Shown here one piece after another: positions 18,143-20,321 of a DNA stretch of 64,000 nucleotides. The translations under genes were made by a program, and so were the position numbers. How positions within the stretch are numbered: position 1 is the first letter of the stretch; every line of letters begins with the position of its first letter. The stretch lies in contig JAEEVN010000003.1 in NCBI GenBank assembly GCA_016290885.1, positions 1,115 to 65,114 of the forward strand, given 5' to 3'. Source of the DNA: Bacillales bacterium. Its GTDB lineage: Bacteria; Bacillota_I; Bacilli_A; RF39; UBA660. A model generated the notes under the pieces. It was not told where the DNA came from and did no database searches. It saw nothing but the letters and a program-made list of their open reading frames with translations.

Positions 18143-19294
18143 TTAATCACATCCTTTATCTGACATATCATTTGTTACAACGCATTTTATTAAACATACA
18201 TTTTCAGAACCATACGTTCCCATAACTGAGAATATAAATTGAACAACAAATGGTAATAATATAAATAATCCAAAGGCAATTAATCTTTTTATAAACTTAC
18301 CTCTGGTTTCTTTCATTTTTTTCTCATCACCAGCTGTTATAGCTTTCAAGAAATCTAGAGAACCTAACAATATGATTAAAAAAGGTGCTGCTATTCTTAA
18401 GAAAGTCCATGCTGATGTAAGATATGAAATATCACTGCATTTAAATGGTTCATGAACTATTTCAATTTTTCGATATGTACTTATTTCATATGCTGCCTTT
18501 AATTCATCTGCTGAAGTATATCCAATTCCCATATTTGTAGAACCTGTTGCAAAATCATTCATTAAGACTTGGTCAACTATAGTTTCACACTTGCCAGTTT
18601 TAGAATTCCATTTACACTCGCTTCCAAAATCATCCTGTTCAACACATTGAAAGTCATAAATGTAATCTTCACAAGTATTGGTGTTTTCTTCTGTGTATAT
18701 ATATTCTGCTGTATAACACTTCCCGTTTGAGTTTGCGGCACATGGATTACCCCAACCATCAGAAGTACAAAGGTCTACTGTTCCATACACATTTGTATGA
18801 TACCCATAGTCTTCACAAGATAATGGTCCATTTTTTATTGGCAAACAGTATCCACTAATTCTATCGGCAGTACATCTATCAGTTGGGCACTTAGATAGAT
18901 CTGGCATTCCATTTGATCCATAGTAACGTGGGGCATTAAACGCATAACATTCTTGCGTATCGTCGGAATCATACGTACAGCTAAATTGAGAGGCAACATA
19001 TTTTTTAGTACATTTATTTCCGTCGACATCAACTGAAGGGCATTCATTCGGATTATATTCTATGCAAAGCCTATCAGCAGGAGTCGAATCGGGAGTTGGT
19101 GGAGTAGTAAATGTACAAATCATTTCAGACCCATCATATTTTTTAGTGCATTCATTCCCTGCTCCATCTGTTGTAGGGCATTCACTATTGCTGTATTCAG
19201 TACATAATTTGACATCAGCTTGCACTTTAGCATTAGGAATTATAAACAAAATAAATAGTATTAATAATATAAAGAAAATCTTCTTTTTTTTCAT
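18143..19294 (-). CDS. Secreted Cys-rich (5 x 4-Cys modules) protein with a C-terminal two-TM pilin-like module
   Basis: Signal peptide MKKKKIFFILLILFILFIIPNAKVQA. 20 Cys in five 4-Cys modules (aa 31-236). The C-terminal FKC...GSLDFLKAITAGDEKKMKETRGKF...TM2 is paralogous to the two upstream genes. Confidence 0.7.
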   Translation of the reverse strand: MKKKKIFFILLILFILFIIPNAKVQADVKLCTEYSNSECPTTDGAGNECTKKYDGSEMICTFTTPPTPDSTPADRLCIEYNPNECPSVDVDGNKCTKKYVASQFSCTYDSDDTQECYAFNAPRYYGSNGMPDLSKCPTDRCTADRISGYCLPIKNGPLSCEDYGYHTNVYGTVDLCTSDGWGNPCAANSNGKCYTAEYIYTEENTNTCEDYIYDFQCVEQDDFGSECKWNSKTGKCETIVDQVLMNDFATGSTNMGIGYTSADELKAAYEISTYRKIEIVHEPFKCSDISYLTSAWTFLRIAAPFLIILLGSLDFLKAITAGDEKKMKETRGKFIKRLIAFGLFILLPFVVQFIFSVMGTYGSENVCLIKCVVTNDMSDKGCD

Positions 19295-19404
19295 ATATTT
19301 CTCCTTTCTATTCTCCTAAATAGAAACAATTTCTTATCATATAATATTTTAACATATTTTTAAATAAATTAAAAGGAAAATTAGCAAAAAATAATGTTTT
19401 TTAA

Positions 19405-19437
19405 AAGAAAAGAAAGAGCAATTTTTATTGCTCTTTT
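19405..19437 (-). terminator. Terminator after the 290-aa pilin-like gene
   Basis: AAGAGCAAT-aaaa-ATTGCTCTT followed by TCTTTTCTTTT on the minus strand. Confidence 0.6.
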
Positions 19438-19448
19438 TTACTGTATTA

Positions 19449-20321
19449 TCATTTACAAGTTCCTGTCGAACCATTTTTTGTTTCCCATGTGCATTCACGT
19501 CCCCAATCATCTTTTTTTGGGCATGAAGATTTAGGTATATTTGACCCATGGTCTGAACAAGATTTAGGATTCTTTATATAGTCACATCCTGGTTTTGATT
19601 GTTCTCCTACTGGTGCAGTTGCATAACAAGGGTTATCAAAATCATCAACAGTTGGGCATGTCTTTCCGTTATTTGCTCCATATTGAACACATGTTAATTT
19701 ATTCTTTTCCCCATTTATACAATATCCAATGGAACTATTGTAGCTTACTTGTCTCTCTACCCAAAGACACGAATGAGTTGAAGACCCTTTTGCACAATCA
19801 GCCTCACTTTTATAATCAGAGCAGGCATATTTCTTTGATGAACTACTGTCAGAACCACTGCCTGAATCAGTACCAGACCCACTACCTGAATCAGTACCAG
19901 AACCGCTTCCTGATGATCCTGGCGTATAATGCAATCCATAATCGTCATCTAAAGGTTCTAATTCGTATCCCTTAAAATCTATTTTTGCTTTTGCTTCTGA
20001 ATAACATGTCCAGAAATCCGCAGTTTTTTTCTTGCCGGCTAATTGTTTTGATATAAACTCCACAAGCCATGGTAGAAGAAATACAATTAATGCTGCAACT
20101 ACTCTTGAAATAAAAGGTTTCCTTTTAATTCTCATTTCTTTTTCATCATGGGCTATTAAAGCCTTAAACCAATCCAATGATCCCCAAATTACTAATGCAA
20201 ATGGTACTGCTATTTGAATCACTCTAATAAAAAATTTTGCAGTTTGAAATATTGGAAACCATCTAGTGCCTTCGCAACTATAATCTTCGAGTAAAAATGC
20301 ATCTTCCAAAAAGTTAATCAT
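19449..20321 (-). CDS. Two-TM pilin-like module, Ser/Gly/Asp linker and C-terminal Cys-rich domain (3 x 4-Cys modules)
   Basis: The N-terminal 122 aa are near-identical in pattern to the ORF at 20427-20795. Linker GSSGSGSGTDSGSGSGTDSGSGSDSSSS. 12 Cys in three modules (aa 167-289). Confidence 0.7.
   Translation of the reverse strand: MINFLEDAFLLEDYSCEGTRWFPIFQTAKFFIRVIQIAVPFALVIWGSLDWFKALIAHDEKEMRIKRKPFISRVVAALIVFLLPWLVEFISKQLAGKKKTADFWTCYSEAKAKIDFKGYELEPLDDDYGLHYTPGSSGSGSGTDSGSGSGTDSGSGSDSSSSKKYACSDYKSEADCAKGSSTHSCLWVERQVSYNSSIGYCINGEKNKLTCVQYGANNGKTCPTVDDFDNPCYATAPVGEQSKPGCDYIKNPKSCSDHGSNIPKSSCPKKDDWGRECTWETKNGSTGTCK
19849..19920 (-). repeat. 24-nt tandem repeat encoding the SGSGSGTD linker
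   Basis: cctgaatcagtaccagacccacta / cctgaatcagtaccagaaccgctt, plus partial flanking copies. Confidence 0.7.
19956..20321 (-). repeat. Diverged direct duplication, copy 1 (pilin-like module)
   Basis: Shares long identical runs (for example atgatccccaaattactaatgcaaatgg) with 20430-20795. Confidence 0.75.

Follow-up and report, generated by a model that had tools for sequence, protein, structure and literature searches.

What do arrays of cysteine-rich modules do on pilin-like membrane proteins of an uncultured gut or rumen bacterium? The question arises from a 64-kb stretch of contig JAEEVN010000003.1 (the window, meaning here the whole stretch of DNA that was analyzed), in which the minus strand at 18143-20795 carries three consecutive genes for pilin-like proteins of 122, 290, and 383 amino acids (aa). 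A sequence-only reading of this DNA had described a four-cysteine module, present in five copies in the 383-aa protein and three in the 290-aa protein, and had taken the arrays for disulfide-knotted adhesin or receptor-binding tips of a mating or secretion apparatus. We hold with moderate confidence that these are disulfide-stabilized, surface-displayed recognition or adhesion modules, carried on VirB2-like subunits of a chromosomal monoderm type IV secretion system (T4SS).

The 32 module cysteines lie exactly where they had first been placed in the two minus-strand open reading frames (ORFs), and the interval originally marked out, 18575-19826, includes every one of them. The 383-aa protein (18143..19294) opens with a Sec-type signal peptide (aa 1-26), followed by five four-Cys units, a spacer of about 45 aa, and a C-terminal two-helix core. 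Its 20 module cysteines (aa 31-236) fall at 31/39/49/60, 77/85/95/106, 116/136/141/150, 160/176/185/193, and 208/217/227/236. The 290-aa protein (19449..20321) begins with a core that has no signal peptide (aa 1-115), continues through a Ser/Gly/Asp linker, and ends in three modules whose 12 cysteines (aa 167-289) fall at 167/176/185/201, 211/222/232/246, and 255/267/277/289. Its Ser/Gly/Asp-rich linker (aa 119-162, 19836..19967) is encoded by 12-nt repeats (repeat family D3) and is predicted to be disordered, with a predicted local distance difference test score (pLDDT) below 50. The 122-aa protein (20427..20795) is a bare pilin-like protein; 285 nt of its gene are 76% identical to 19974-20258 in the core of the 290-aa gene, which identifies it as a paralogue of the first 115 residues of the 290-aa protein. 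Outside the modules, cysteines occur only at 286, 367, 371, and 382 of the 383-aa protein and at 16 and 106 of the 290-aa protein. Cysteine makes up 9.4% of the 383-aa ectodomain and about 9-10% of the module segments of both proteins, compared with a background of 1.1% in window ORFs of at least 150 aa. We found 48 homologues of the 383-aa protein, all unnamed, and 50 of the 290-aa protein.

To describe the module, the eight groups of four cysteines were aligned and a hidden Markov model (HMM) was iterated over 101 family proteins. The resulting profile has 32 positions (consensus CEDYGAEDECPKTDDYGNKCKWVSKNGSSGKC) and detects 115 modules in 52 of the 101 proteins. The shared pattern that had been claimed for all eight groups holds for seven, which fit this one profile: four of the five groups in the 383-aa protein and all three in the 290-aa protein. 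In the 383-aa protein these are module 1 (aa 31-60, 19115..19204, 36.1 bits), module 2 (aa 77-106, 18977..19066, 31.9 bits), module 4 (aa 160-193, 18716..18817, 21.4 bits), and module 5 (aa 208-236, 18587..18673, 28.0 bits); in the 290-aa protein they are module 1 (aa 167-201, 19719..19823, 23.3 bits), module 2 (aa 211-246, 19584..19691, 27.7 bits), and module 3 (aa 255-289, 19455..19559, 39.0 bits; pLDDT 91-95). The remaining group of the 383-aa protein, unit 3 (aa 116-150, 18845..18949), is a different four-Cys unit. It runs from C116 to C150 (CYAFNAPRYYGSNGMPDLSKCPTDRCTADRISGYC) with a Cys spacing of 19/4/8, is unmatched by the module HMM, is modeled at pLDDT 84-92, and is kept in the close homologues P0001-P0006 and P0102 (handles beginning with P denote related proteins, and those beginning with L denote related loci).

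As a guard against circularity, a profile built from one paralogue family was scored on the window protein of the other family. The profile of the 290-aa relatives gave 35.3 bits on the 383-aa ectodomain, compared with a maximum of 6.9 among 1000 shuffles, and the reverse test gave 31.3 bits against a shuffle maximum of 13.1. All complete modules have the four cysteines; beyond these, one Asp is conserved at 90% or more, and a Tyr after C1 and a Gly before C3 at 70% or more. AlphaFold2 (AF2) models the 383-aa protein at a mean pLDDT of 74, with its modules at 85-92, and the modules of the 290-aa protein at 77-95, with the linker below 50. The predicted shape is two short helical turns followed by a beta-hairpin that bears C3 and C4. 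Judged by these profile comparisons, the module is real and common to both proteins.

The module is also narrowly distributed. A HMMER search of 1.84 billion representative proteins with the module profile returned 21 matches at an E value of 1e-3 or less, and 19 of these contain a two-helix hairpin with a G-S/M-L-D-F-x-K-A...D-E-K...K/R loop. The other two, P0101 and P0104, were rejected as module proteins, being long repeat proteins matched on a DDxGNxC fragment only. Distant module-bearing pilin types have a Cys or CxxC before helix 1 and a CxxC after helix 2. One of them, P0112, belongs to a five-gene pilin array in another T4SS locus (L094), and the module-bearing P0110 sits in a locus syntenic with that of the window (L013). 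As far as can be seen from such matches, the module appears to be an accessory of the pilin-like family and of nothing else.

Searches against known families bear out the earlier impression that the module belongs to none that has been named. When the window proteins and 72 relatives were scanned with Pfam and NCBIfam, no named family matched the module above threshold; there was only a weak Paramecium_SA (PF01508) signal and otherwise noise (Toxin_20, AtDEF-like, PSI domain). The module profile matched nothing among all PDB sequences, and Foldseek searches with both AF2 models against the PDB and with the 383-aa model against BFVD gave a best E value of 0.66; the sensitivity of these fold searches is limited because the models are multidomain with flexible linkers. 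Pfs25, an Entamoeba lectin, and RSPO1 were considered as fold relatives and set aside as noise, with Foldseek E values of only 3-9. A literature search found no description of a pilin-fused, Cys-rich modular ectodomain.

The anchors of both proteins were described in the sequence-only reading as pilin-like, and this assignment is upheld. The core of the 383-aa protein (aa 284-383, 18146..18445; core alignment A4) scores 19.4 bits on PF18895 (T4SS_pilin) and comprises, in order, FKCSD..., a first transmembrane (TM) segment, a charged loop (GSLDFLKAITAGDEKKMKETRGKFIKR), a second TM segment, and a C-terminal tail with C367, C371, and C382. AF2 predicts helices at 286-320 and 324-357 in the 383-aa protein and at 22-57 and 60-95 in the 290-aa protein, each pair forming a hairpin. 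PF18895 matches 27 of the 34 relatives of the 383-aa protein, and the best-scoring family member scanned, still under the cut-off, has an E value of 8.4e-5. With P0185, which reaches 37.7 bits on PF18895, the 122-aa protein shares 39% identity across 106 residues (E 1e-27), and the core profile also retrieves P0218, P0041-43, and P0048, all of which pass the PF18895 cut-off. Homology of the window cores to PF18895 is established through these intermediates, with P0185 as the bridge. NF045849 (Mbov_0395 family pilin-like conjugal transfer protein) matches 10 of 20 diverse cores with a best E value of 8.3e-5, short of its curated cut-off, and has no match to the window 122-aa protein at E of 1 or less. 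Among PDB sequences, the core profile found unrelated membrane proteins only (E>0.3). "VirB2-like" is for us a provisional label, suggested by the family name, the predicted hairpin architecture, and the gene position.

The topology of the anchor follows from where modules are attached. Across the family they stand N-terminally behind a signal peptide, C-terminally, or on both sides of the hairpin (P0075, P0094, P0107), which places both termini outside and the Lys/Arg-rich loop inside. The cores also have conserved flank cysteines: C16 and C106 in the 290-aa protein, C16 and C105 in the 122-aa protein, and C286, C367, C371, and C382 in the 383-aa protein. In 98 of 109 small homologues (P0114-P0226), a single Cys precedes helix 1, a single one follows helix 2, and the stretch between has none. 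Such a pair probably closes the hairpin by a disulfide on the outside. It could be an analogue of pilin cyclization or, instead, an intersubunit cross-link; T-pilin and TrbC are head-to-tail cyclized, and a hairpin-closing disulfide would be functionally reminiscent of this.

Directly downstream of the pilin-like genes and on the same strand lie genes for VirB6-like, VirB3-like, VirB4, cell-wall hydrolase, and VirD4 proteins. The membrane proteins of 324 and 536 aa (15556..18140), which have weak matches to NF045889 (Mbov_0396) and TIGR02783 (TrbL), are probably a VirB6/TrbL-like channel component; the two genes are fused in L001, and the resulting 845-aa gene occupies the same position in L001-L003. 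Three overlapping ORFs follow (12910..15537), encoding a VirB3-like protein of 103 aa, a TraC-like N-domain of 180 aa, and a VirB4 ATPase of 596 aa. NF045975 (VirB4_plasma) matches the first two of these, and P-loop_TraG, AAA_10, and DUF87 match the third. The same three-ORF split occurs in all the related loci examined (L001-L013) and is therefore a conserved arrangement and not the product of frameshift errors. A membrane-anchored protein of 1039 aa (9754..12873), with an M23 peptidase domain (PF01551) at residues 763-832, may fill the VirB1-like role of a wall hydrolase. The last gene of the cluster encodes a VirD4-type coupling protein of 752 aa (7431..9689), matched by PF02534 (5.8e-59), TraG-D_C, and TrwB_AAD_bind.

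The cluster is bordered by SpoU methylase, LemA, and UDG genes on one side and by Hsp20 and pyruvate kinase genes on the other, and the same genes are found at the same chromosomal site in L001-L004, L008-L010, and L013. We found no relaxase-like or integrase ORF in the cluster, and a plasmid collection gave a best VirB4 match of only 30% identity and no match to the 383-aa protein; on these grounds a mobile-element reading, as an integrative and conjugative element (ICE) or a plasmid, was rejected. Of the proposed "mating or secretion apparatus", a type IV secretion cluster is indeed present, and mating is doubtful for a chromosomal cluster that stays in place from species to species and adjoins no relaxase.

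This system is widespread. When one genome per species was scanned for relatives of the window VirB4, uncultured low-GC gut Bacilli of at least 289 species proved to encode one, and the best 80 of these (L014-L093) are 65-92% identical over the full length. Record titles among the relatives include uncultured Bacilli, Tenericutes, Erysipelotrichaceae, Clostridium sp. CAG:433, Acholeplasma sp. CAG:878, Ca. Faecisoma, and Ca. Coprosoma, and one relative (L033) is a circular genome of 1.20 Mb. From names such as CAG-433 and Ca. Faecisoma we provisionally assign these organisms to the GTDB order RF39 and its neighbors, a set of gut Bacilli with reduced genomes; NCBI places Ca. Faecisoma under Mycoplasmatota incertae sedis only. 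Between one and seven pilin-core ORFs lie upstream of VirB4 in 68 of the 80 loci. Among these best 80 loci the four-Cys module occurs only in the nearest, L014, from sheep rumen, and the others carry unrelated ectodomains. Our literature search found no paper tying RF39-type Bacilli to a T4SS, and it met PF18895 in only two works.

The ectodomains differ sharply among close relatives. When the window is set beside two relatives with 85-86% DNA identity in the flanks, protein identity is 96-98% for SpoU and 92-93% for VirB4, and 41-44% for the 383-aa protein and 44-49% for the 290-aa protein. The ectodomain DNA could not be aligned to that of relatives with flanks about 80-86% identical. Modules 1 and 2 of the 383-aa protein are 74% identical in DNA over 72 nt, and module 2 is absent from the orthologue (338 aa) in the closest relative, L008, where the DNA alignment to the window breaks at 19047-19103. 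Taken together, the similarity of the two modules and the loss or gain of one of them indicate that copy number is changing now. Across the family, the outward segment may consist of modules (0 to 7), of low-complexity sequence rich in Ser, Thr, and Lys, or of a Peptidase_C39_2 or NlpC/P60-like domain. In P0079, P0081, P0089, P0092, and P0093, a C-terminal Peptidase_C39_2 or NlpC/P60-like domain replaces or follows the Cys module, and these proteins are putative pilin-anchored hydrolases.

Substitution rates were estimated by the Nei-Gojobori method, pairwise against the closest relative (flanks 91% identical). The ratio of nonsynonymous to synonymous rates (dN/dS) is 0.08-0.25 for the ectodomains, compared with 0.04 for housekeeping genes. 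Synonymous divergence from L008 is uneven along the locus: 0.03-0.05 in the 536-aa, VirB3, and TraC-like genes, 0.2 in VirB4, 0.6 in the flanking SpoU gene, and about 1.0 in the 290-aa gene. This mosaic points to recent recombination inside the locus, and species with flanks of just 91% identity seem to have traded the T4SS core not long ago.

In favor of disulfides, the module segments lie outside the cytoplasm by the topology given above. The number of extracytoplasmic cysteines is even in 95 of 105 family proteins, and the odd cases include cysteine-peptidase fusions, in which the odd count follows from the need for an extra catalytic Cys. Across the four-Cys groups, unit 3 included, the spacings between successive cysteines are 7-19, 4-9, and 7-15 residues, and short C-x2-4-C knuckles are absent save for the C-x4-C of unit 3. 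The four cysteines are invariant while loop lengths vary. From this we infer a small independent fold held by two disulfides. Natural Cys-loss variants gave no clue to connectivity, every apparent loss being an alignment truncation. The view that Cys-rich exported proteins are unusual in this phylum agrees with the literature: Firmicutes exclude cysteine from exported proteins and generally lack robust oxidative folding (Daniels et al., PMC2823432). Some Clostridia do have DsbA/VKOR enzymes (PMC12453122).

In the arrangement that we propose, the three genes would encode an array of VirB2-like (PF18895-type) pilin subunits of a chromosomal monoderm T4SS, each of them a two-helix membrane hairpin with both ends outward and a conserved positive loop toward the cytoplasm. 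The 122-aa subunit would be bare, and the other two would carry tandem modules of about 30 residues on the outward end, N-terminally behind the signal peptide in the 383-aa protein and C-terminally behind the flexible Ser/Gly/Asp linker in the 290-aa protein. Each module would fold as two short helical turns and a beta-hairpin secured by two disulfides, and chains of modules would project from the cell surface, or from the outer face of a pilus-like polymer, as stiff structures resistant to proteases. Module sequences change much more quickly than the remainder of the apparatus, and they undergo duplication, deletion, and replacement by unrelated ectodomains, peptidases among them. Because they evolve so much faster than the machine, the modules are likely to be a contact surface, used for adhesion or partner recognition and exposed to diversifying pressure. 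The adhesin or receptor-binding role first suggested for them would fit this hypervariability. The word "tips" is unsupported: the modules are no separate tip protein but form part of the pilin-like subunit, joined at either end, and so would decorate every such subunit.

Several observations weigh against this proposal. A thiol-disulfide oxidoreductase, which the sequence-only reading had named as a check on disulfide formation, was not found; a motif scan that covered the 64-kb window and 96 related loci turned up no thioredoxin-like [WFY]CxxC ORF. Because the rumen or gut habitat is anoxic, it is not assured that the 32 cysteines become oxidized. The gathering threshold of PF18895, 26.6 bits, is not reached by the 383-aa (19.4), 122-aa (17.7), or 290-aa (11.7) protein, and Foldseek searches of both models against the PDB returned no VirB2, TraA, or TrbC pilin (best E 1.9). 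The organisms are uncultured, and none has ever been seen to bear a pilus. Positive selection on the ectodomains was looked for and not found against the closest relative, where dN/dS is raised but below 1 everywhere. Finally, the module-bearing P0107 has no T4SS gene within 10 kb.

The module can also be explained in other ways. One is that it is a divergent member of a known Cys-rich repeat family, most plausibly PF01508, and hence not new. PF01508 is the only ectodomain family that recurs in our scans (9 of 72 family members, best E 7.8e-4), it shares with the module a C...C...C-x-W...C rhythm, and the distant P0111 reaches 23.6 bits against a cut-off of 21.2, yet no single stretch of that protein passes alone. 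In the window, PF01508 scores 15.6 bits on module 1 of the 290-aa protein, over positions 26-53 of 62, and has no match to the 383-aa protein. With matches that span only part of the 62-position model, and with Cys-rich patterns so prone to compositional matches, we regard membership as very unlikely; to our knowledge, PF01508 is otherwise specific to ciliates, which also counts against it. Another explanation is that the module cysteines bind zinc or iron, or stay reduced, in metal-stabilized or redox-buffering units. This can be likened to a proposal for Cys-rich surface proteins of anaerobic protists, and it draws on the occurrence of cysteines in fours, on the rumen or gut anaerobe that bears them, and on the missing Dsb-like gene nearby in a phylum that generally lacks robust oxidative folding (PMC2823432). 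The long spacings given above, with a short C-x4-C in unit 3 only, argue otherwise, as does a variation in loop length that would be unusual at metal sites. AF2 also models C3 and C4 on opposite hairpin strands, and the single Cys on each outside flank in 98 of 109 cores fits pairing and not metal. We consider metal-bound or reduced modules quite unlikely.

Other explanations accept the fold and question its use. The modules might bind no ligand and serve instead as rigid spacers or as a protective coat of variable makeup by which the secretion machine is raised or hidden; phage or immune pressure (pilus-specific phages, host IgA), and not partner recognition, would then account for the variability. 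A copy number of 0-7 would suit this, as would the low-complexity Ser/Thr/Lys-rich tails that some homologues have instead, the lack of a conserved candidate pocket beyond the cysteines, one Asp, one Gly, and one Tyr, and a dN/dS below 1. Elsewhere, however, the modules are replaced by enzymes (Peptidase_C39_2, NlpC/P60-like), which points to functional payloads, and the conservation of D-D-[YFW]-G and C-x-[DE]-Y motifs speaks for something beyond a spacer; we think a purely structural or protective role unlikely. It is possible, although on the unlikely side, that the hairpins never polymerize and are channel-associated T4SS subunits in the membrane, like VirB2 of pilus-less systems, with the arrays acting at the level of the cell wall, for example by binding or threading thin peptidoglycan. 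No Gram-positive T4SS pilus has been demonstrated beyond the Patescibacteria hypothesis (PMC12857230), Foldseek gave no match to assembled pilins, and the modules would add considerable bulk to a filament. Set against this, the 122-aa paralogue is bare and has a near-consensus promoter to itself, as would fit a system of major and decorated minor subunits, and the one to seven pilin-like genes in 68 of 80 loci resemble pilin arrays.

The recognition or adhesion modules that we favor can be compared with several known systems. Among the closest are the pilins of PF18895 and of NF045849 (the latter from Mollicutes ICEs), which share the two-helix hairpin with a conserved charged loop, are homologous to the window proteins through intermediates, and are likewise encoded upstream of an Mbov_0396-like membrane protein and an Mbov_0397-like VirB4. 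The window proteins differ in scoring under both family cut-offs and in having large Cys-rich ectodomains and conserved flank cysteines, and whereas the Mbov_0395 family is found on ICEs, the window cluster is chromosomal and without a relaxase. The Gram-negative VirB2, TrbC, and TraA pilins are also small helical hairpins with both termini outside and a basic loop, stand at the head of the T4SS operon, and occur as paralogue arrays, as in Bartonella and Anaplasma (PMC12102498). In contrast to the window proteins, to which they have no sequence or Foldseek match, classical pilins lack fused ectodomains of 130-210 residues; the window proteins in turn are not cyclized, and their flank Cys pair could close the hairpin instead. 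PrgB, PrgC, and PrgA of pCF10 share a proposed surface-contact role for a monoderm T4SS, but they are Cys-poor, are encoded by separate genes, and use LPXTG or other wall anchoring; we found no homology between them and the window proteins, whose display domain is Cys-rich and fused to the pilin-like subunit. Eukaryotic Cys-rich repeats (Paramecium_SA PF01508, EGF-like, TNFR/furin-like C2) are similar in being tandem four-Cys surface units of about 30 residues with a hypervariability that suggests antigenic or recognition roles, and different in their sub-threshold sequence similarity, the absence of a significant fold match, the bacterial host, and the anchor.

A further comparison is with Patescibacteria. 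According to a 2025 review, Patescibacteria are the single exception to the absence of VirB2 and VirB5 from Gram-positive T4SSs and are unique among monoderms in their potential for conjugative pili (PMC12857230). Their T4SS is chromosomal, usually without a relaxase, and accompanied by arrays of 2-11 divergent pilin genes (PMC12102498). The Patescibacteria system (Southlakia epibionticum; PMC12102498, PMC12857230) shares with the window a monoderm host, a reduced genome, a chromosomal location, no adjacent relaxase, and arrays of divergent pilin genes beside virB4; it differs in phylum, the window belonging to Bacillota, and Cys-module ectodomains are unreported in Patescibacteria. Pilin-like gene arrays heading a T4SS in a large gut and rumen lineage of Bacillota would stand against the Patescibacteria-only exception of the review (PMC12857230). 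As a tentative extension, one that we think unlikely, a vertically inherited, relaxase-less T4SS with decorated pilins could serve an entire order of gut Bacilli with reduced genomes (at least 289 species) as a permanent organelle for interaction between cells. It would be a Bacillota counterpart of the essential T4SS and pilin array of epibiotic Patescibacteria, and its module arrays would be hypervariable partner-recognition determinants that are oxidatively folded in an anaerobe.

More broadly, the pilin hairpin of this lineage acts as a general display scaffold, on which Cys modules, low-complexity tails, or peptidases are carried. The module itself constitutes a domain family without a name, apparently confined to such pilins, in bacteria expected to avoid exported cysteine (PMC2823432). 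If our proposal is true, it would offer a handle on partner contact by uncultured, auxotrophic gut Bacilli, a test case for oxidative folding in anaerobic Firmicutes, and a compact, tandem, naturally tolerant display module on a pilin.

Some minor features of the locus and its relatives bear mention. A near-consensus sigma-70-like promoter match precedes each pilin-like gene on the minus strand (19336-19436, 20344-20371, and 20828-20856), and a terminator-like hairpin followed by a T-run lies just past the stop codon of the 290-aa gene (19413..19436), in each case by consensus scan only. The separate promoter matches and the hairpin hint that bare and decorated subunits may be expressed at separate levels. 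The P0107 gene, at 10001-11407 of L011/L012, comes from a spore-former and stands alone between a NUDIX gene and the GTPase genes EngB and Der; the window has its EngB and Der genes at 1555-3517, a few kilobases past the T4SS cluster. At 1-4400 of L094, the T4SS and pilin array adjoin a Tad/T2SSE-RcpC-type pilus gene set. Elsewhere in the window, an S-adenosylmethionine (SAM) riboswitch at 42106-42189 on the plus strand and a ribosomal protein L10 leader at 59633-59759 on the minus strand are ordinary Firmicute RNAs, unrelated to the secretion locus.

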